Shown here: positions 1,064-9,158 of the stretch, one piece after another
How positions within the stretch are numbered: position 1 is the stretch's first letter
Layout of the letters: the number at the start of each line of letters is the position of its first letter
From: Candidatus Micrarchaeota archaeon
GTDB taxonomy: Archaea > Micrarchaeota > Micrarchaeia > Anstonellales > Bilamarchaeaceae
Length of the DNA stretch: 64,000 bases
NCBI GenBank assembly: GCA_038046765.1
Contig: JBBSVN010000007.1
Location: forward strand, 18,102-82,101
Reading direction: 5' to 3'
Position numbers and translations under genes: made by a program
Notes under the pieces: model-generated
What the model was told of the DNA's origin: nothing
Databases searched by the model: none
The model's input: the letters and a program-made list of their open reading frames with translations, nothing else

Positions 1064-2029
1064 ATGGGAATAAAAAAAAGAGTGATTAGGGGTAATGCAT
1101 ACTACTACTTAGAAAAAAATATCCGTATCGGAGAAAGTAATTGGAAAACATTCTATATTTATTTAGGTTCAGCTAAGCCTTTAGTAAAAGAACTTAAAAA
1201 ATACGAAAAAATCCTTGCTAAAAAAATAGACATATTCCTAAGAAATCACGTAATTAAGCCAGGAACAGAATTTATTGATTCTAAAACAGCACTACTTTTA
1301 GAACGGATAAAAACATCAAACAGTAAGATACTTTCTAAACTAAGTAAAGACAAGAGAAATGCACACATAAAGACTCAAAGAGAAGCGTTTATAACAAATA
1401 CAAATGCGATTGAAGGAAGCAGATTAACATTAGACCAAACAAAAAGGATACTTGAACTTAAAAAAGAGTATAATTCTAAAGATAGAGAAGAAATAGAAGT
1501 TATAAATATGGGAAAATGTCTTGAACTTTATGATGAAATGCTAAATAAAAAAATTGATTTGAAAGAAGAAAAGATTTTGTATCTTCACCTAATCCTGCTT
1601 AAGGCAATTCCCGATTACGAGTCTTACACAGGAACATGGAGACCAGTTAATGTATATATTAGAGGTTCGAAATACGAATTTCCGCATTGGAAAGAAGTTC
1701 CAAAAATGGTTAAGGAACTTTTAAGCTGGTATGTGGAAAATAAAAATAGAATTCATCCGGTTGAATTAGCTGCAAAGTTTCACTCTAAGTTTGTAACAAT
1801 ACATCCTTTTGCAGATGGAAACGGAAGGATGGCCAGGTTATTGCTTAACTATATATTAGAGCTAAACGGGTTTCCTTTTGTCGATATTCCATTTTCAAAA
1901 AGAGATGAATACTTTAAAACGCAGGAAGAAGGGCATTTTGGAAAGTATAACTCATTTGTTAATTTCTTAGTTGAAGAGATAAAGAAGCAATTTAAGGATT
2001 TGAAAAAAGAATTTAGGAAAAAGAATTAG
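1064..2029 (+). CDS. Fic/DOC family protein (putative AMPylase / NMP-transferase)
   Basis: Canonical Fic motif HPFADGNGRMARLL (HxFx[DE]GNGRxxR). Start moved to the internal ATG at 1064 (MGIKKRV...) because the upstream part of the ORF overlaps the palindromic promoter region. Confidence 0.85.
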   Translation: MGIKKRVIRGNAYYYLEKNIRIGESNWKTFYIYLGSAKPLVKELKKYEKILAKKIDIFLRNHVIKPGTEFIDSKTALLLERIKTSNSKILSKLSKDKRNAHIKTQREAFITNTNAIEGSRLTLDQTKRILELKKEYNSKDREEIEVINMGKCLELYDEMLNKKIDLKEEKILYLHLILLKAIPDYESYTGTWRPVNVYIRGSKYEFPHWKEVPKMVKELLSWYVENKNRIHPVELAAKFHSKFVTIHPFADGNGRMARLLLNYILELNGFPFVDIPFSKRDEYFKTQEEGHFGKYNSFVNFLVEEIKKQFKDLKKEFRKKN

Positions 2030-3468
2030 TCAACCGTCGCAATAAATCCTTCTTCCTTTGCATCGTTTGCATATACTAAAAGCTTTCTTTTTGTAACGCT
2101 ATTTGGAGTTAAGCCATTTAGAAACTTTTGGTCAATATCCCCAGCTAAAACAGGAATTCCTGCTTCTCTAAATGCTCCGTTAAAATGAGACTGCAGACCA
2201 AAGTTTTTTTCTTCACATAAAGCTACGGCACTTACGTTTGAATGATCTGCGAATGTAACTTCTTTGAGCTGCATAAGATTAAACGCGGTTCCGTCGGGAA
2301 GTTTTAGAATTAATATGTAATCCGAAAGAGAGTCATTTATCGAACCAAGTTCTTCTAATCCATCGATACTGTCAATGTAAACAACGTTGTTAGACTTCTT
2401 GATTGACCTACCAAATACAGAACTACCAAAATTTCTTGGGTCGCTATACGGATCTCTATCAACATTCAAAATTTTTGCTGAATCAGGTATGTCTGGTTTT
2501 TTTACATCTTCAAATAAAACAGGAGCGCATTGTAAAATTGACCAGTTCACCATTGAAGATGAAAACTCGTGATAAGATGAACCTGAAATGTGTTGCTTTA
2601 AGTGATTTAAAATTTCTTGTAACCCATTAAATCCGTCTTCAAAAATTTCGCCCATTTTACTTAGAAGGTCTCGAATTAATTTTGTACCACTTGACCTACC
2701 TGAAGGATCTTTAAGGTTTGTTGCATGGTCAAGATTTCCCTCAGACAGCAATAGTGCTCCGGCTATATTACTATCCATGCTCATGCGATCAAACACTTTA
2801 TGATTTAGGTGACTGGATAAACAGGATCTAGACCACATATTATTCGCTCCTCCGATTCCAGTTCCAATCGTAAGTAATGATTCTTCTCCTCTAAAACGAG
2901 TAATTACATTAACATGATATGGTGTTCCGTAAACCTGTTCGCTAAAATCAAATCCTGCTACTGGCATAACTAAAACGCCTGGGTTTTCATCCATTGGTAA
3001 ACCCACTCGTTTTTTAAATGCTAAGACATCTCTTGAAAAGTCACTTGCTAAAATTCTTTTTGCGATTTGTTCTAATTTTTGCATGCTCTCTTCTGTTCTA
3101 TCAGCTAGCATAAAATCAGTATGCCATAATCCGACTCCAGCTGGTGTGCATTCATCAGAGCGAACAGCAACATACAAGCCTCTGAATGGATCAACAGATT
3201 CTCTTAATGCTTCTTTTTCTTCTCTATTAAAATCAGTTTTTTCGATCGCACGTTCTGATTCTTTATTTCTACTATCTGCTCCAGCTCGTGCTAGAAAAGG
3301 TCTCCATAAAAATGGAGTAATTGCGATTGAAGGCGGATAAAATATCCACGTATTAGCTTCTTCCAAGGTTTCAAAAACAGGTTTTTTTTCTCTTAGCGCT
3401 CGGCTTTTTGCTCCAGTATGATTTTGGCCAATAGTTTCCCTTGTTAGTCTAATATCAACTGAACGCAT
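2026..3468 (-). CDS. PEP-utilising-enzyme-like protein (PPDK_N-type ATP-grasp plus swivelling His domain); putative phosphotransferase
   Basis: LYVAVRSDECTPAGVG resembles VAVRSSAxxEDxxxxSFAGQ of PEP synthase/PPDK N-domains. C-terminal QSHFNGAFREAGIPVLAG resembles the phosphohistidine swivel motif TSHAAIVARELGIPAVVG. No PEP/pyruvate TIM-barrel domain is present. Confidence 0.4.
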   Translation of the reverse strand: MRSVDIRLTRETIGQNHTGAKSRALREKKPVFETLEEANTWIFYPPSIAITPFLWRPFLARAGADSRNKESERAIEKTDFNREEKEALRESVDPFRGLYVAVRSDECTPAGVGLWHTDFMLADRTEESMQKLEQIAKRILASDFSRDVLAFKKRVGLPMDENPGVLVMPVAGFDFSEQVYGTPYHVNVITRFRGEESLLTIGTGIGGANNMWSRSCLSSHLNHKVFDRMSMDSNIAGALLLSEGNLDHATNLKDPSGRSSGTKLIRDLLSKMGEIFEDGFNGLQEILNHLKQHISGSSYHEFSSSMVNWSILQCAPVLFEDVKKPDIPDSAKILNVDRDPYSDPRNFGSSVFGRSIKKSNNVVYIDSIDGLEELGSINDSLSDYILILKLPDGTAFNLMQLKEVTFADHSNVSAVALCEEKNFGLQSHFNGAFREAGIPVLAGDIDQKFLNGLTPNSVTKRKLLVYANDAKEEGFIATVD

Positions 3469-3498: not shown

Positions 3499-3900
3499 TT
3501 ACTTCACCAACCTAAACTTAAACCCGTAATGAATTAAGCCTTCTGGATCGTCCTTTTGAATAACCCTAAAAACAGATTCAACTCTGTCGCCTGTTTTCAT
3601 ATCATTAGCGTGAGCATCTACGATTTGCGTAGTTAATCTTGCTCCTTCATCTAATTCGATAATCGCTAAAACATACGGAATCTGGTCTTCAAAACCAGCG
3701 GGTGGTGCGTGTATTTCTGTAAATGCATAAATTTTTCCTTTCCCGGAAAATTGTATTTCTTCTAGTTTTCCCTTTCTTCTACAAGTTGGGCAGACAGCTC
3801 GTTTTGGAAAATATGTTTTGTGGCAGGTTATACATTTAGTACCAAGTATTCGGTAACGCTCGGGTATTCTTCTCCATGTTAATGGTATTGATTGACGCAT
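3499..3900 (-). CDS. DUF35 family Zn-ribbon/OB-fold protein (thiolase-associated scaffold)
   Basis: Four-Cys ribbon CITCHKTYFPKRAVCPTCRRKG followed by an OB-like C-terminus. The size (133 aa) and the thiolase in the same cluster fit the archaeal DUF35 family. Confidence 0.75.
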   Translation of the reverse strand: MRQSIPLTWRRIPERYRILGTKCITCHKTYFPKRAVCPTCRRKGKLEEIQFSGKGKIYAFTEIHAPPAGFEDQIPYVLAIIELDEGARLTTQIVDAHANDMKTGDRVESVFRVIQKDDPEGLIHYGFKFRLVK

Positions 3901-3917
3901 GTTTATCTACCTCATAA

Positions 3918-4220
3918 TTACATTTCTTCAATTGGTTGACCAGTTAATGGACAACAAGGAATTGGACTTGATTTGATAAATGGACTATCTGGAGCCATCA
4001 TTAATGAGCATAAACCATAGAAATGAGCCGTACGAATTGTTGCTTTTGTGTCTGGCCTAACTCCAGTCGTCATTTCTCTAAATTTGCAATATTGTGACGT
4101 TAATTTCCCGAGTCGATGCATTAATCGCTTTCCACGAAATCCACGAGTATGTGCATGTACGTATAAATCTCCTAAATTTGCTACAGTTACTTTTCCGTTT
4201 TGAAGTTTTAGTTGTGTCAT
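3918..4220 (-). CDS. Paralog A of the MxQKLKLxxGKVTV N-terminal-module family (100 aa), unknown function
   Basis: Start reassigned to the ATG at 4220 (MTQLKLQNGKVTVANLGDL...YCKFREM). The N-terminal module is shared with three upstream genes. The C-terminus is Cys-rich and unique (PIPCCPLTGQPIEEM). Confidence 0.6.
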   Translation of the reverse strand: MTQLKLQNGKVTVANLGDLYVHAHTRGFRGKRLMHRLGKLTSQYCKFREMTTGVRPDTKATIRTAHFYGLCSLMMAPDSPFIKSSPIPCCPLTGQPIEEM

Positions 4221-4225
4221 ATAAA

Positions 4226-4849
4226 TCACCATCTCCAACGTGTAGGGCGACCACAAAAATCATATTCAGCAGGACGCATAACCCTGTGGCCATAATCGTC
4301 AAAAATACCTTCTTTATCTCTTTGTATTGCTCTTTGATGGACTGCTTCAAGTTCAATGTCTCTACGTTCTTGTTCGACTACAATTTCTACTCTATCAGCT
4401 AGAACTTCGATTTTCTTTAGCATAACATCTAATTGATCTGATAGCGGTCTTAATCTTTTTTGACCAAGTTCAATTTCTGGAATATCTTTTTCCATTTTAT
4501 TTACTGTCTCGAGCGATGTTTCTATTTCACTTAATAGATCATTTGCGTTTGTTTTTATCGCAATTCCCCTAAATGTGTATAAATCTGTTTTCATTTTTGG
4601 TATAAATTCTTTAATTTCTTCTAAGACTTCGAACATGTTTTGGAGGTGTCTGCTCAAAACAGCTTCGTTAACTTCCGGTTTATCACAGGCAACTTTTAAT
4701 GATTCTTGATCTCCTGCAAAACCTTTAAACCGAAGAAATTGCTCCACTAATCTATCTGAACTTCTTCCCTTTTGTTTGCATATTTGATGTAGTGCGAATA
4801 AAGTATTGACAGTTACTTTTCCGTCCATTAATCTTAGTTTTTGTTGCAT
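4226..4849 (-). CDS. Paralog B of the same family (207 aa), unknown function
   Basis: MQQKLRLMDGKVTVNTLFAL...QFLRFKG N-terminal module. Coiled-coil-like middle region. C-terminal EYDFCGRPTRWRW motif shared with paralog D. Confidence 0.65.
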   Translation of the reverse strand: MQQKLRLMDGKVTVNTLFALHQICKQKGRSSDRLVEQFLRFKGFAGDQESLKVACDKPEVNEAVLSRHLQNMFEVLEEIKEFIPKMKTDLYTFRGIAIKTNANDLLSEIETSLETVNKMEKDIPEIELGQKRLRPLSDQLDVMLKKIEVLADRVEIVVEQERRDIELEAVHQRAIQRDKEGIFDDYGHRVMRPAEYDFCGRPTRWRW

Positions 4850-4860
4850 AAATATTTACC

Positions 4861-5232
4861 TTATAAATCTAGTAATCTTTTCGTTCTTATTGCTGCAGGT
4901 CTATCCGCTTCCTTTACAAAATCTGGTTCACTTGGCGGAAGATCTCGTTCTGCAAAAGCACGAGCTTCGCTCTTAAAAGGATATTCTCCCAAAGAAGTTG
5001 TACCTAACCTTTGCGCTAATTCATCAGCGTAATCTGGTTGCATTCGTCTAGCTTTTTTATCCATCTTTGCAAAGCCATCTCCGATAGAATCTGGAAGAAT
5101 CTTTTCTCTAAATCTTTTAAGTTCAAAAGCTAAGGTTCGATATGTACTTCTACTTGTAAATCGACCACCAGCGAGTTGATCGACATGTTCAGCAGTTACT
5201 TTTCCGTTAGTTAGTTTTAGTTTCTGTTGCAT
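4861..5232 (-). CDS. Paralog C of the same family (123 aa), unknown function
   Basis: MQQKLKLTNGKVTAEHVDQL...FELKRFRE N-terminal module; unique C-terminus. Confidence 0.65.
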   Translation of the reverse strand: MQQKLKLTNGKVTAEHVDQLAGGRFTSRSTYRTLAFELKRFREKILPDSIGDGFAKMDKKARRMQPDYADELAQRLGTTSLGEYPFKSEARAFAERDLPPSEPDFVKEADRPAAIRTKRLLDL

Positions 5233-5250
5233 AAATATCTCCTTTAAAAT

Positions 5251-6222
5251 TTAATAAACACCGGAACTCCCGTACGATCGACCTGCACCAACCTTCGCAC
5301 TAATCTTATCCTGTTCGATTTCCTCTTTAGTGCGCTTTCGTTCTAGTAGTGGAAGATCTGTATACGCAAGAGTTGGTGCTGGAATATCTGGTCTTAAAGT
5401 CATCCAATTACTCCTAGGACGGCCGCAAATATCATAATCTCCTCTGTAAGGTATTCTACCTGTTTCAAAATAAGCATCATTAGCTTCAATTCTTCTTGCC
5501 CTCGCGGTTGCATCGAGTTCCGCTTCATGTCTCCTTCTAATCCCTGCGTTTTCCTTATCAACGCGTTCTCTATTTTTTTCAATATCTTCATCGCGCTTAT
5601 ATACCGACATGATATAAAGTATATACTCTAAATCAGTTAGGGTTACTGTTTGTATTTCTTGCCTTTCTTCATGTCCGAAAAGTTTCATTAAAGCAGCGTT
5701 GAACGGATGTTGGAGTTGATCTTTGTATCTATTAATTAAAACCTGGCTCGGATCTTCTTTACGTGCCTTGTTGTAAGCATCCATTAGCTCTGCATCATCA
5801 AGTTGTCCTGATTCAAAATATTTTTTACTTATTTCTTGCCAGTTTTCTCCTTTTTTAGCAGAAGCGATACATAATTCAAATAAATCATTTAGAGTTATCT
5901 TTTCTTGTTTGGGAATTGGCTTAGCAACTTCTGCAGCGATTGGTTTTTCTTGTTTCTCATCCTGTTTAATAATCTGGGGGTTTACTGGAGCGTCACTTTG
6001 TAATTTAGTCAACATGTCTTTAGCAAATGTATTAAGATCTCTAATGCCTCGCCTAAGTCTATCCTCAGAAGAAGTTGTACCTATATCCATCATATTTCTA
6101 AATCTGCGAATTTCTGAATATAATTTATCTGGGGTTCTCCCATTTTCACGTGCTCTTCTAGCTAGTACACTTACCTGTTTAGTTGTTACTTTTCCTTCTT
6201 GAAATTTTAGTTTTTGTGTCAT
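5251..6222 (-). CDS. Paralog D of the same family (323 aa), unknown function
   Basis: Start reassigned to the ATG at 6222 (MTQKLKFQEGKVTTKQVSVL...EIRRFRNM). Two further internal copies of a KxTLxDLxxL-type module (EKITLNDLFELCIAS, QTVTLTDLEYILYIM). GDYDICGRPRSNW motif as in paralog B. Confidence 0.65.
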   Translation of the reverse strand: MTQKLKFQEGKVTTKQVSVLARRARENGRTPDKLYSEIRRFRNMMDIGTTSSEDRLRRGIRDLNTFAKDMLTKLQSDAPVNPQIIKQDEKQEKPIAAEVAKPIPKQEKITLNDLFELCIASAKKGENWQEISKKYFESGQLDDAELMDAYNKARKEDPSQVLINRYKDQLQHPFNAALMKLFGHEERQEIQTVTLTDLEYILYIMSVYKRDEDIEKNRERVDKENAGIRRRHEAELDATARARRIEANDAYFETGRIPYRGDYDICGRPRSNWMTLRPDIPAPTLAYTDLPLLERKRTKEEIEQDKISAKVGAGRSYGSSGVY

Positions 6223-6252: not shown

Positions 6253-6528
6253 TTATTCTGTAACAACATTTGTGTTATTTGCTCGGACTAGTATTATTTC
6301 CTCTTCATGTTCCCTTATCTGTACTAAAACTTTGCACCAACGAGTTCGGGTAGCAATACGAGCTAAGCTTATACCAAAATGACATTGATCTGGGTCTTCT
6401 TCGTAACCCATCCTAACTTTACGGCTCGCATCTTTAAATTTAATAAAAGAACTGTGTTCAATGTCGATCTTAAGATCAGAATTGTCTTTGGCACGCGTAT
6501 TAACTTTAGTAAAACGAATTTGGTTCAT
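6253..6528 (-). CDS. Hypothetical protein (91 aa)
   Basis: ORF with SD-like GGTGAATAACTT preceding the ATG. Tightly packed in the co-directional cluster. No recognisable motif. Confidence 0.5.
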   Translation of the reverse strand: MNQIRFTKVNTRAKDNSDLKIDIEHSSFIKFKDASRKVRMGYEEDPDQCHFGISLARIATRTRWCKVLVQIREHEEEIILVRANNTNVVTE

Positions 6529-6551: not shown

Positions 6552-6788
6552 TTAATAAATACTTTTACCTGTGCAACCACCGTAGTAGTGTCTTCGGACG
6601 CTTGTATTAGATATAGTTCGATCTGCAATAAACTTTGCTCTGGTTTCTGCTTCAAGAGTATCTGTCGCAGAAAAGAATCGTCTTAATACTAATTGTCTTT
6701 CAAGTTCCTGTGCTCGTTTTTCAAGTACTGCTCGTTCTGATGGCGAAACTCTTTGCAATTTTATTGCTTGACTTTTTAATAATTTCAT
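6552..6788 (-). CDS. Hypothetical coiled-coil protein (78 aa)
   Basis: Start placed at the third codon (GGTAAATGTTTATGAAATTA context). Sequence MKLLKSQAIKLQRVSPSERAVLEKRAQELERQL..., with C-terminus RRHYYGGCTGKSIY. Confidence 0.45.
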   Translation of the reverse strand: MKLLKSQAIKLQRVSPSERAVLEKRAQELERQLVLRRFFSATDTLEAETRAKFIADRTISNTSVRRHYYGGCTGKSIY

Positions 6789-6852: not shown

Positions 6853-8016
6853 TCAATATCCCCGTTTATACAAGTGTACAACAGCAGTTGCGCCTGATCC
6901 ACCGACATTATGAGTCATTCCAATTTCAGCGTCTTTAACTTGTCTTTCTCCAGCTTCGCCACGAAGTTGCCATGCAATTTCAACAGCCTGTTTAATTCCA
7001 GTTGCACCAACCGGGTGACCACATGCTTTTAATCCGCCTGAAGTATTAACGACAACATCGCCACCATATGTGGTTTTGCCTTCGATACTTGCGTGTCCGC
7101 CTTTTCCTTTGGGGAAAAATCCTAAATCTTCAATTGCTAAAATTTCTGCAATCGTAAAACAATCATGAACTTCTAAAACATCGACATCGCTTGGTTTTAA
7201 TTTTGCTTGTTCAAATGCTTTTTTACCAGCTACTTCAGTTGCGCGTAATCTAGTTAAACTATCTCGAGAATGTAATGCAATGTTATCGCTTGCCTGGCTG
7301 CTAGCGAATATCTCAATTGGTTTTTCACAGTATTTTTTAGCAATTTCTAAAGGAGCTAAAACAACAGCTGCTGCTCCATCGGTTATTGGTGAACAATCAA
7401 AAACTTTTAATGGATCGGCAATCATTTTTGAATTCATTACTTGTTCAATTGTAATTTCTTTTTGATATTGTGCGTATTTGTTTTTAGCGCCATGTTTATG
7501 ATTTTTTACTGCAACGCTAGCCATCATTTCCTCTGTCGTTCCAAATTCTTCCATGTGTTTTTTTGCCATTAGAGCATAAAGCCCTGGAAAAGTAGCGCCT
7601 AAAAATAATTCCCATTCCTGATCTCCAGCACCACCTAAAATATCGCTAACTTCATTAACATCTAAGTCAGTCATTTTTTCTACTCCGCCAACGACAACAA
7701 TATCGTGCATGCCAGAACCAACTGCCATGTAACCTTGCCTTAAAGCTAAACTTCCGCTTGCGCAAGCTCCTTCAACTCTTGTAATTGGTTTTGGGGTTAA
7801 ACCCATGTAATCAGCTAGTAATGCTCCAATATGCTCTTGACCCACTAATCTACCTGAAGCCATTGTTCCGATAAAACCTGCGTCCAGATCCTCACCATGA
7901 ACATGCGCGTCATCTAGTGCTTTTACTCCTGCTTCAATTACTAAATCCCGAAATCCTCTTTCCCAATGTTCGCCAAATTGCGTCATTGCTGCTCCTATAA
8001 TTGCTACTTTTCGCAT
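6853..8016 (-). CDS. Thiolase (acetyl-CoA C-acetyltransferase, archaeal / SCP-x-like type)
   Basis: [16 protein letters not shown]-terminus. Active-site Cys context [13 protein letters not shown]-terminal GHPVGATG and [12 protein letters not shown]. Start set at 8016 behind GGGTG; the ORF-track start at 8067 is a TTG. Confidence 0.85.
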
Positions 8017-8194
8017 GAATATACACCCTATAAACTCTTTTCTATTGTTCTTTGGCAATGCCAGCAAACAAATTATAAGTTAAAAACTAACCTAAAGCTT
8101 ACACTAACGTTGTTAACTACGTTTTTTAAATAGCGCATATTCGTATACGTTGAATAACGAAAGACTAAAATTAGGCGAAATTAGCAGGGGATTT

Positions 8195-8881
8195 CTAAGG
8201 ATTGACCAAACTCATCATTTCAATTGAACCTGCGCGCTCCAATACAAATAAACTCAACATGGTACCAAACCCTGCTTTTATAGATAAATATCTTTGTTCT
8301 CCAAAGTTAAGGTTCAACTCATCTTGCGCATATCTTGCCGTATGAGTAGAATGCATAAAATTTCTTATTTCAAACATAATCTCCACATCTGCTGCGCCAG
8401 GGCAGATTACAAATGGATCTGAATCTGCTTTTTTATTAGGTTTAAATTCGATCATTAGATGCGTACCACCAGAATGTTGTTCTTCAATTGCAATAATCGA
8501 ATCGGGTTTGAATGTGACACCAAAAAAGTTATAAAATCCAAGACCAAAATTGGGACGAACAATAAAAACATCAGCATCAGTTGTATGCATTAATGCAGCA
8601 GTAACTAATAATTGTTGATCTGCCCTGTGTTTAGAAATAAATACCGCACCTTCATCCACACTTCCCTTATGTGTAAATGAAACGCTTCGGTCACATGACT
8701 CTAAAAGTCTTTGCATAAATGTTTTCTGCGTTCGAGGTTTACAATCAACAGATTTAATAATTCTTCTTCGTTCTCTAACTTCCAATTGTGCTATGCTCAT
8801 GAAAAACACCCATAGAATAATATAGATAAATGGAACTGTAATTTGTGTAACTATTAATGTACCCATGCGTTTAAAAAACAT
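8195..8881 (-). CDS. Hypothetical protein with N-terminal TM segment
   Basis: Long ORF with a hydrophobic N-terminus (LIVTQITVPFIYIILWVFF) and no recognisable motif. An alternative start at 8800 is possible. Confidence 0.45.
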   Translation of the reverse strand: MFFKRMGTLIVTQITVPFIYIILWVFFMSIAQLEVRERRRIIKSVDCKPRTQKTFMQRLLESCDRSVSFTHKGSVDEGAVFISKHRADQQLLVTAALMHTTDADVFIVRPNFGLGFYNFFGVTFKPDSIIAIEEQHSGGTHLMIEFKPNKKADSDPFVICPGAADVEIMFEIRNFMHSTHTARYAQDELNLNFGEQRYLSIKAGFGTMLSLFVLERAGSIEMMSLVNP

Positions 8882-9158
8882 CTTTTACGACAAATAACTG
8901 AAAAAGAGGAATTGATTCCAGCTAAAAAAGATATATTCAGTTGCTGAATATTCAGATGGTGAATATAACTATTAACCAACCCAAGCTAAGTACTGGTTTT
9001 TATCATATGGTTAAATGATAAAACAAAATGTGAACAAAAGTTTTCGATTAATATAAAGCGGAAATAGAAATTGGCAAACATTATCAATTTCTTGCGAATT
9101 TATTTTAAAATTTTTTTATACAAGCATTTAAAAAATTAGTCAAGCTAAACTTTAGAAT

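Follow-up and report, generated by a model that had tools for sequence, protein, structure and literature searches.

Thiolase and a DUF35 protein are encoded side by side in many Micrarchaeota as part of a mevalonate-pathway operon. In one Candidatus Micrarchaeota archaeon (contig JBBSVN010000007.1), these two genes are held apart by a block in which four consecutive genes open with the same short module and then run into dissimilar C-terminal regions. How did such an array come to lie within this operon, and what might a common head joined to unlike tails be doing there? The array is a genuine, very narrowly distributed family of orphan paralogues, and the sections of DNA on which this statement and the readings below depend are compiled in Table 1. 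The window refers to the whole 64-kb stretch of DNA that was analysed.

Table 1. Positions in the window of the array genes, their heads and C-terminal motifs, and the neighbouring genes.
Feature	Position	Strand	Basis or remark
g323, family member, 323 aa	5251-6222	minus	ORF and translation
g123, family member, 123 aa; head and unrelated tail	4861-5232	minus	ORF and translation
g207, family member, 207 aa; head, acidic helical region, EYDFCGRPTRWRW end	4226-4849	minus	
g100, family member, 100 aa; directly upstream of DUF35	3918-4220	minus	
Head of g323, residues 1-47	6082..6222	minus	HMM domain 1-47, 81 bits; pI 11.0
Head of g123, residues 1-47	5092..5232	minus	HMM domain 1-47, 77 bits; pI 10.3
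Head of g207, residues 1-47	4709..4849	minus	HMM domain 1-47, 79 bits; pI 10.2
Head of g100, long form, residues 1-53	4062..4220	minus	HMM; pI 11.1
g323 C-terminal motif (RRRHEAELDAT...GDYDICGRPRSNW), common to g207	5404..5538	minus	Tail-only local alignment
g207 C-terminal motif (QERRDIELEAV...EYDFCGRPTRWRW), common to g323	4229..4375	minus	Tail-only local alignment
g91, headless orphan ORF, 91 aa, within inserted block	6253..6528	minus	SD GGTGA
g78, headless orphan ORF, 78 aa, first gene of inserted block	6552..6788	minus	
Archaeal acetoacetyl-CoA thiolase, upstream flank, 387 aa	6853..8016	minus	Pfam Thiolase_N and Thiolase_C_1
DUF35 protein (zf-ChsH2 and OB_ChsH2_C), downstream flank, 133 aa	3499..3900	minus	Pfam

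The original prediction, made from the sequence alone, described four tandem minus-strand genes of 100, 207, 123 and 323 aa lying 5-18 nt apart, and its coordinates and lengths proved exact. The gaps between g323, g123, g207 and g100 are 18, 11 and 5 nt, and the NCBI and Logan gene calls on identical contigs likewise yield products of 323, 123, 207 and 100 aa. An SD of the GGTGA, GGAGA or GGTAA type is located a few nt 5′ of every ATG in the operon (AGGTAA for g323, GGAGA for g123), and the stop codon of g207 falls within the SD of g100 (GGAGATGGTGA). The array genes are probably co-transcribed and translationally coupled with those of thiolase and DUF35. Their products are predicted to be small, soluble, cytoplasmic proteins, in which no signal peptide or transmembrane segment was recognized (maximum KD19 < 1.0).

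The flanking genes carry the features of the archaeal thiolase-DUF35 operon, namely a thiolase of the appropriate type and a DUF35 protein with zf-ChsH2 and OB domains encoded on the same strand. The thiolase scores 588 bits with PRK06064, which passes the 420-bit cut-off, and 590.6 bits with NCBIfam AcCoTHIOL_METTL, just below the 600-bit cut-off; in the DUF35 protein Pfam recognizes OB_ChsH2_C (E 8.6e-20) and zf-ChsH2 (E 6.3e-9). Both are bona fide members of the archaeal thiolase/HMG-CoA synthase (HMGCS)/DUF35 operon (Vogeli et al. 2018, as cited in PMC12960953), and their adjacency in many Micrarchaeota is as elsewhere in archaea. The window departs from this arrangement in that six orphan genes (2.96 kb) intervene, HMGCS is distant (on the source contig it lies beyond the window, with DUF35 about 8 kb upstream of it), and the head family is unrelated to any subunit. 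For g78 and g91, no family match was obtained in Pfam, PHROGs, NCBIfam or PADLOC. Orphans also make up the neighbourhood around thiolase and DUF35, p228 and p480 among them; the latter is a 480-aa protein downstream of DUF35 that had been described as PEP-utilising-like, a label that was not confirmed, as no family or PDB match was found for it.

The head consists of about 47 aa with the pattern MxQKLKLxxGKVT...L...RF[RK] and is common to all four genes. Its invariant columns are M1, Q3, L, G-K-V-T, L20, L and F, and seven head columns are invariant across six genes in two species. The proposal that the four genes start with one N-terminal module is upheld by their alignment, by pairwise BLASTP within the set (E 3e-8 to 2e-2) and by leave-one-out HMMs, which found the omitted member among 15,884 ORFs at E 4e-5 to 4e-8, the best false match having an E of at least 0.02. 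All six heads are strongly basic (pI 10.2-11.6) and the tails are mostly acidic (pI 5.2-6.3 in five of the six members), so that the proteins display a marked charge asymmetry. Conservation had also been claimed at the nucleotide level, and a 30-nt DNA repeat is indeed present in four copies of 77-87% identity; each of the four genes contains an exact copy of the 11-mer GGAAAAGTAAC, which is absent from the rest of the window. This repeat is, however, not independent evidence, since amino-acid conservation and codon bias account for it. Where the two species have the same residue, codon identity is 0.71 over head codons 1-14, 0.64 for thiolase and 0.58 for DUF35.

Beyond these genes the head is exceedingly rare, and the earlier view that it belongs to no described family was borne out. 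Searches of Pfam, NCBIfam, PHROGs and PADLOC gave no match, those of PDB sequences no meaningful one, and Foldseek no significant match in PDB and BFVD, where every E was at least 1. When the four-head profile was used in an exhaustive HMMER scan of 1.8 billion representative proteins, the window’s own genes were returned together with one real, out-of-sample homologue, P0008 of a sister species, at E 5.7e-8. Word-indexed searches of 5.8 billion clusters gave no homologue outside this species and one sister species. Phage and plasmid records yielded no head homologue, the DNA pattern of the core motif QKL[KR][LF]xxGKVT had no match in metagenome or viral contigs, and 163 loci from beyond the two species (15,884 ORFs) yielded no head. 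The term undescribed system, for which the original prediction named the array its best candidate, overstates what is a family of orphan paralogues that two species carry within the thiolase-DUF35 operon.

In the sister Micrarchaeota species (locus L003) the gene order is thiolase, a 157-aa head gene, a 106-aa head gene and DUF35. There are thus two head genes in that species versus four in the window species; g78 and g91 are missing from the sister locus, and p480 is not adjacent to DUF35 on its contig. The flanking proteins are 96% (thiolase) and 95% (DUF35) identical between the species, and in a blastn comparison of the two loci only these two genes align. P0008, the 106-aa product, is the orthologue of g100 and the sole clear orthologue among the members (46% identity; tail z = 13.1), with its gene 6 nt from DUF35 in L003 and g100 17 nt from it in the window. 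For this pair dN is 0.48, versus 0.03 for the flanks (about 17-fold), and dN/dS is approximately 0.29, with dS saturated. From the identity of 46% versus 95-96%, the difference in dN and a dN/dS of about 0.3, the array members are recognized as coding genes that evolve very fast, yet under constraint.

At about 55 of the roughly 150 Micrarchaeota loci that could be assessed, thiolase and DUF35 lie 3-30 nt apart. Because this close spacing is found in many other Micrarchaeota, the array represents a lineage-specific insertion into the mevalonate-pathway operon, and because it lies between two genes that stay 95-96% identical, the insertion event can be bracketed in time. At the same junction, other Micrarchaeota lineages carry different small-ORF arrays.

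The predicted fold of the head bears on its possible function. The AF2 model of full-length g323 is all-helical with a mean pLDDT of 55.7 and has beta-bridges at residues 8 and 11. When the head of g323 is modelled alone (pLDDT 68, reaching 74-79 across residues 11-40), residues 1-13 form a coil, 14-26 a helix, 27-30 a turn and 31-47 a second helix, with no beta-strand in the monomer; the confidence of these models is moderate to low. Three of the six members have GRT, GRS or GLS at the turn between the helices; in the other three, which are g100 and both head genes of the sister species, a 7-aa insertion follows the Gly. Ribbon-helix-helix (RHH) domains are characterized by about 45 residues in a beta-alpha-alpha arrangement, a tight G-x-S/T/N turn and an intertwined homodimer that places an antiparallel beta-ribbon in the DNA major groove, and their usual architecture joins a conserved head to a C-terminal tail that varies. 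The superfamily (Arc/MetJ/CopG; Pfam clan Met_repress) includes antitoxins with an RHH head and small regulators of archaea or viruses. The head resembles its members in being about 45 aa long, strongly basic and N-terminal in small proteins, in its predicted order of elements, with an extended segment followed by a 13-residue helix, a short turn that contains Gly and then a helix of 15-17 residues, and in the G-x-S/T turn of three members. The element lengths of Arc-type domains agree with the predicted helices, and the strand-like [KR]-V-T-[VI] motif of the head recalls the DNA-reading strands of NikR, MetJ and CopG.

Profile and structure comparisons are less favourable to this likeness. 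In an hhalign comparison against nine RHH domains fixed beforehand (of the nine sequences, only that of Arc verified), helix A and the turn aligned in the expected register at P = 0.033 and a probability of 1.5%; with Arc alone the probability was 0.3%. RHH proteins do appear among the non-significant Foldseek matches (VapB, TacA and Arc in PDB; TraY, CopG-like and NikA in BFVD), and plain helical hairpins such as Sda and the arms of seryl-tRNA synthetase equal them in score. No RHH model of Pfam or NCBIfam matched the six heads alone even at E <= 10, the full proteins had no Pfam or NCBIfam match at E <= 1 or 0.1, and no operator-like repeats could be attributed to the head family. The head thus matches no RHH profile, and its likeness to solved RHH proteins, whether in structure or in profile, is not significant. 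It further differs from RHH domains in the 7-aa insertion after the turn in half of the heads, which would be unusual for them, in an extra conserved MxQKLKL segment before the putative strand, in a strand-to-helix connection about two residues shorter than the classical one, and in having no cognate toxin, operator or strand in the monomer model.

The modelled two-helix hairpin with its extended N-terminus is nevertheless compatible with an RHH-like binding head, and the best guess for the module is that it is a small head that binds DNA. As a whole, the locus is best explained, if only tentatively, by young or fast-evolving tandem paralogues that carry an RHH-like nucleic-acid-binding head. 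A very young or very fast-evolving family, present in one small Micrarchaeota lineage only, would have been born within the thiolase-DUF35 operon and expanded there by tandem duplication, each product combining a basic head of about 47 aa (extended KLKLxxGKVT, two helices) with a mostly acidic tail free to diverge. As an RHH-like module the head may dimerise, possibly also between paralogues, and the dimer would offer the K-V-T segment to a common nucleic-acid target; as this segment is invariant, all paralogues are proposed to share one target. The tails could then provide differing oligomerisation or partner-binding properties. In this scheme the fold, the dimer, the binding of nucleic acids and any part in regulation are all putative. 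Should the head prove to be a new and highly diverged module for nucleic-acid binding or docking, the array would offer a clean natural example of the birth, duplication and diversification of small regulatory proteins, set in an essential operon of a genome-reduced symbiotic archaeon. The locus also marks the thiolase-DUF35 junction of Micrarchaeota as a recurrent landing or birth site of lineage-specific small genes. Practical importance is limited, the head family being known from two species only.

Of the analogies drawn in the original prediction, that of an adaptor may still hold, with the head as a shared element for docking or binding and the tails as its variable part. The hairpin could instead act as a protein-docking tag for one common partner, most plausibly the thiolase/HMGCS/DUF35 complex, with the tails as lineage-specific accessory subunits or modulators. 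Archaeal thiolase, HMGCS and DUF35 proteins form a tripartite complex (PMC12960953) that could serve as this partner; the family is confined to the thiolase-DUF35 interval in both species, g100/P0008 as sole conserved orthologue is always directly upstream of DUF35, and AF2 shows a two-helix hairpin only, for which Sda-type protein-binding hairpins are as weak a Foldseek match as RHH proteins. The sole link to the complex is gene position, however, the head pI of 10-11.6 better suits nucleic-acid binding, and the very fast evolution of the would-be subunits sits poorly with the 95-96% conservation of their supposed partners. Moreover, thiolase and DUF35 abut without a head gene in many Micrarchaeota, so there is no conserved requirement for the head, and docking is considered unlikely. 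A still more doubtful extension has the heads tethering fast-diversifying, lineage-specific accessory subunits to the thiolase/HMGCS/DUF35 metabolon, its mRNA or its promoter. Were it true, a host-dependent DPANN archaeon would be evolving, from within the operon, a private, fast-changing regulatory layer on the first isoprenoid lipid steps, and the locus would record how a gene family was born and expanded in tandem in an essential operon of an archaeon, a rare case that can be dated. The genes may otherwise be young and weakly constrained, either de novo or diverged beyond recognition, riding on a strongly expressed essential operon with no or marginal specific function; the head would be the founding ORF, and the tails would have been extended or remodelled after each duplication. 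This would fit a family seen in two sister species only among billions of proteins searched, the differing copy number, the extra orphans g78 and g91, unrelated tails of low model confidence, the high dN, the orphan-rich surroundings and the arrays of other lineages at this junction. A dN/dS well short of 1 nonetheless indicates selection on the protein, saturated dS notwithstanding, and the invariant head columns, the good SD and the tight spacing of every gene point the same way. So bare a role is rather improbable, although this reading concerns origin and a binding function is compatible with it.

Small RHH-type proteins and orphans abound in the viruses and plasmids of archaea, and the block might be what is left of a mobile element or virus that integrated between thiolase and DUF35. 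Compared with the ancestral order, in which these two genes adjoin, it is an insertion; each of its six genes is an orphan, and the weak Foldseek likenesses include small phage or viral RHH-like proteins. An integrase or replication gene, att repeats or a tRNA target, aberrant composition and viral or plasmid homologues were nonetheless not recognized: none of the six block proteins has a match to a Pfam, PHROGs, NCBIfam or PADLOC family, be it integrase or other; IMG/VR, phage and plasmid collections gave no match; no tRNA gene occurs in the window, no long direct repeat flanks the block in the region’s repeat list, and GC and GC3 of the array genes cannot be told from those of the flanking genes. 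All genes of the block share the orientation of the host operon and are probably coupled with it in translation, and the same slot is still filled in the sister species, with synonymous sites by now saturated, which makes such a remnant quite improbable. RiPP arrays require a short core peptide and, close by, an enzyme for maturation or an RRE as well as a protease or exporter; polymorphic toxins have a trafficking domain at the N-terminus and a toxin domain at the C-terminus, each toxin gene being followed by one for immunity; and type II toxin-antitoxin pairs have an adjacent cognate toxin (PIN/VapC, RelE/ParE, CcdB, MazF and others). The original prediction had likened the head to a leader or targeting peptide, with the C-termini as products, cargo or effectors. 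The conserved N-terminus and hypervariable C-termini in tandem do recall multi-precursor RiPP loci, with their adjacent small genes and conserved N-terminal 45 aa or so, as well as polymorphic toxin arrays diversified at one locus (Zhang et al. 2012, PMC3482391), and the uncharacterised p480 is encoded downstream of DUF35. The tails of 50-275 aa, however, far exceed RiPP cores, are helical or disordered with 0-3 Cys and show no enrichment in Cys, Ser or Thr; nearby, neither a modifying enzyme or RRE nor a protease or transporter was recognized, the neighbours being thiolase, DUF35 and orphans, and p480 is without matches and not next to DUF35 in L003. Unlike polymorphic toxins, the array proteins are tiny, predicted to be cytoplasmic and encoded inside a metabolic operon, with no secretion signal, known toxin, cargo or immunity domain, and with the head in every gene of the run, no headless immunity-like gene being interleaved among the four. 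These readings are very improbable. A type II toxin-antitoxin system is not supported either, as Pfam, NCBIfam and PADLOC revealed no toxin domain in g78, g91 or the members, and each of the four consecutive genes has the head.

Among the tails, a second motif had been predicted in g207 and g323 (EYDFCGRPTRW and GDYDICGRPRSNW, with preceding Arg/Glu helices), and it received modest support: the two tails align with a Smith-Waterman score of 54 (z = 3.6), equalled in 3 of 300 shuffles. Otherwise the tails diverge, as had been described, the remaining within-window pairs being no better than shuffles; in these shuffle-tested alignments the g123 tail has no similarity to any other. The two internal KxTLxDLxxL-like strings reported for g323 are present, but their homology to the head is unsupported, as the unit at 108-125 obtains a head-HMM domain score of -0.5 bits and the third unit no match. 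The layout of g323 is a head, a helical middle, a long helix at about residues 195-254 and the GDYDICGRP motif.

Four consecutive ORFs occupy the minus strand at positions 3918-6222 of the window. They are named g323, g123, g207 and g100 after the lengths of their products in amino acids, and are separated by intergenic gaps of 18, 11 and 5 nt. These calls reproduce the lengths and the 5-18 nt spacing of the tandem genes in the original prediction, and the four products have also been called publicly on identical contigs (NCBI MAG GCA_964365985.1 and the Logan assembly of ERR3858128). The array belongs to a tightly spaced, same-strand run of nine genes, in the order acetoacetyl-CoA thiolase, two orphan ORFs (g78 and g91), g323, g123, g207, g100, DUF35 and a further ORF, p480, and a Shine-Dalgarno sequence (GGTGA, GGAGA or GGTAA) lies a few nt 5′ of the ATG in every gene of the run. 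At window positions 4220-4236 (GGAGATGGTGAtttatATG) g207 terminates within the Shine-Dalgarno motif of g100. The ribosome-binding site of g100 thus fixes in part the C-terminal RWRW that g207 encodes, and the overlap implies translational coupling. In an ENA assembly of the same organism (contigs of ~26.7 kb; P0001, P0002, P0004, P0006) g323, g207 and g123 are truncated or repeatedly frameshifted; the way these copies slip in and out of frame suggests assembly errors at homopolymers, not pseudogenes.

Coordinates of the genes in and around the tandem array (window positions)
Feature	Position	Strand	Description
Fic-domain gene	992-2029	plus	convergent with p480
p480	2026-3468	minus	last of nine-gene run
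DUF35	3499-3900	minus	after g100 in nine-gene run
g100	3918-4220	minus	ORF, 100 aa
g207	4226-4849	minus	ORF, 207 aa
g123	4861-5232	minus	ORF, 123 aa
g323	5251-6222	minus	ORF, 323 aa
g91	6253-6528	minus	orphan ORF
g78	6552-6788	minus	orphan ORF
thiolase	6853-8016	minus	first of nine-gene run
p228	8195-8881	minus	orphan ORF

The products of the four array genes begin with a common head, which aligns over ~47 residues with an invariant M, Q, L, G-K-V-T, L, L and F. The proposal of a shared N-terminal module is borne out by this alignment, by leave-one-out HMMs that recovered each omitted member at E-values of 4e-5 to 4e-8 among 15,884 ORFs (noise began at E >= 0.02), and by an independent homologue, the 106-aa protein P0008 of a sister Micrarchaeota species, which the four-head profile pulled from 1.8 billion proteins at an E-value of 5.7e-8. 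The repeat is also real at the nucleotide level, where an exact 11-mer (GGAAAAGTAAC) is found in all copies, and is due to amino-acid conservation and codon bias. The idea that the opening ~40 nt of each gene harbour a nucleotide-level element of their own was rejected, as between-species codon identity at identical residues is 0.71 for head codons 1-14, close to the 0.64 of thiolase. Beyond the head, the C-terminal motif common to g207 and g323 has modest statistical support (z = 3.6) and the remaining tails within the window are, as first described, unrelated to each other; the internal head-like units ascribed to g323 found no support in an HMM domain search. A second head protein of the sister species (157 aa; L003:1513-1986) contains GDYEILRPYNPSIP, similar to GDYDICGRP...RPDIPAP of g323, and a tail-only alignment of these two proteins is not significant (z = 0.9).

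No match to the full proteins was found in Pfam, NCBIfam, PHROGs or PADLOC, nor to the heads alone in Pfam, and PDB sequences yielded chance matches only (for example RAP and malic enzyme) to the head profile, to g207 and to p480. Word-indexed searching of 5.8 billion clusters with the head alignment, g323 and a six-protein alignment recovered nothing except proteins of the window itself and, from a second assembly of this organism, frameshifted copies of them. Exhaustive HMMER searching of 1.8 billion representatives added P0008 as the single true homologue; two other matches, P0007 and P0009, were rejected as low-complexity repeat artefacts. Phage and plasmid collections contained no head match, and a degenerate DNA pattern for QKL[KR][LF]xxGKVT, which detects three of the four window genes, had 0 matches in metagenome and viral contigs. 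As the original prediction had supposed, the head defines a sequence family not described before, and it matches no model of the libraries and collections searched.

P0008, the g100 orthologue, lies on a 3.97-kb contig (L003) with the gene order thiolase, 157-aa head gene, P0008, DUF35 and a kinase-like gene, the last ~200 nt after DUF35. The family is thus known from two sister species in the identical slot, with four copies in the window species, which also carries the two extra orphans g78 and g91, and two in the sister. Between the window and L003, thiolase and DUF35 are 96% and 95% identical at the amino acid level (dN 0.029 and 0.028; dN/dS 0.033 and 0.015) and alone align by blastn, whereas g100 and P0008 are 46% identical (dN 0.48; dN/dS ~0.29); dS is saturated in this comparison and the dN/dS ratios are rough. 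It follows that the array genes are protein-coding and under some constraint, evolving ~17 times faster than their operon partners.

A wider view of the thiolase-DUF35 junction was obtained from 160 Micrarchaeota loci fetched by DUF35 anchoring from GTDB genomes and JGI metagenomes (L004-L163; for example L050:6256-8004, L052:380-2075, L036:6981-7983, L037:5616-6595 and L009:7495-8004), the closest of which has 79% DUF35 identity. Outside the two species, the head is absent from all 15,884 ORFs. By approximate tally of a per-locus table, thiolase and DUF35 are separated by 3-30 nt in ~55 loci, and in ~65 (also approximate) DUF35 directly follows a transaldolase gene, upstream of which the loci inspected closely have epimerase and transketolase genes. 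Thiolase/DUF35 adjacency is the arrangement expected for genes of the archaeal thiolase/HMG-CoA synthase (HMGCS)/DUF35 complex (PMC12960953), and the head-gene slot between the two is an insertion. In a few lineages the junction instead holds 1-4 tandem small ORFs that contain Cys and two transmembrane (TM) segments and diverge fast (46-54% identity, L050 vs L052). These were rejected as homologues of the head family, since no homology was found; the junction is a variable site across Micrarchaeota.

Signal peptides and TM segments are absent from every member (maximum KD19 < 1). The heads are strongly basic (pI 10.2-11.6) and the tails have a pI of 5.2-6.3 in five of the six members. AF2 models are of low to moderate confidence: g323 is predicted to be all-helical (mean pLDDT 55.7), a long helix at ~195-254 being the sole confident element, and the head alone (pLDDT 68) is modelled as an irregular segment (1-13), a helix (14-26), a four-residue turn and a second helix (31-47). 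The head may be a dimeric nucleic-acid-binding domain of the ribbon-helix-helix (RHH) type to which variable tails are attached, a reading that we prefer tentatively. Points of likeness are the lengths of the predicted elements, a G-R-S/T turn in three members, the invariant K-V-T within an extended basic segment, and the basic head set against an acidic tail. Foldseek found no significant structural neighbour in PDB and BFVD; RHH proteins (VapB, TacA, Arc, TraY, CopG-like, NikA) recur among the named weak matches, where unrelated helical hairpins equal them in score. A single pre-specified hhalign comparison with nine RHH domains, of which the Arc sequence alone was verified, put helix A and the turn in register as expected, but at no better than P = 0.033; Arc by itself gave no signal. 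RHH membership of the head is not established, because no RHH profile in Pfam or NCBIfam matched and because, in half of the heads, the turn is followed by 7 inserted residues, an uncommon feature in RHH domains. Much more secure than the RHH reading is the existence of a real, translated, lineage-specific and fast-evolving family of tandem paralogues.

The head could instead be a docking tag that attaches proteins to the thiolase/HMGCS/DUF35 complex, for which gene position is the one line of evidence; this we consider unlikely. Similarly improbable is that these are young genes under weak constraint, carried along by a strongly expressed operon; that account bears on how the genes arose and would allow for a binding function. 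A mobile-element remnant is less probable still: the family libraries gave no integrase-type domain match, no repeat brackets the block, the window has no tRNA gene, no viral or plasmid homologue was found, and the GC and GC3 of the array genes are those of neighbouring genes and give no compositional signal. The leader/core analogy first drawn for the array was not sustained, nor was a polymorphic effector reading, as the defining partners of each are absent, and either arrangement is very improbable.

The organisation itself is of a known kind: small proteins expanded in tandem within one lineage, in which an N-terminal head of binding type is conserved and the tails are free. What is unusual is that the array was born in, or inserted into, a conserved operon that serves the first steps of the mevalonate pathway, that its genes evolve 17-fold faster than those on its flanks, and that unrelated arrays of small genes recur at the thiolase-DUF35 junction in other Micrarchaeota.

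The genes around thiolase and DUF35 (p480, p228, g91 and g78) are all orphans, having no significant match in Pfam, NCBIfam or PADLOC and no significant relative in 163 Micrarchaeota loci. The earlier view of p480 as a PEP-utilising-like partner enzyme found no evidence in Pfam, NCBIfam or PDB sequences, and on the short sister contig the gene after DUF35 is not p480. The final 4 nt of the Fic-domain gene and p480 are common to both ORFs. Beyond the window start, the source contig (L001:17300-19513 and 20418-20972) carries PP2C phosphatase and Ser/Thr kinase genes, followed by the HMGCS gene, which is therefore displaced ~8 kb from thiolase and DUF35. Upstream of thiolase both species have a conserved stretch, tcgttattcaacgtat ... 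tttaaaaa (window ~8115-8165; L003:40-85), within diverged non-coding DNA; the conserved stretch is probably where the thiolase operon has its promoter (BRE/TATA). At 8926-8973, within the divergent region between p228 and an MgtC-like gene and ~45-90 nt 5′ of the p228 start, a perfect 8-3-8 palindrome (ATATTCAG-TTG-CTGAATAT) is overlapped by a second (ATTCAG-ATGG-TGAAT), and the two together form a candidate operator.
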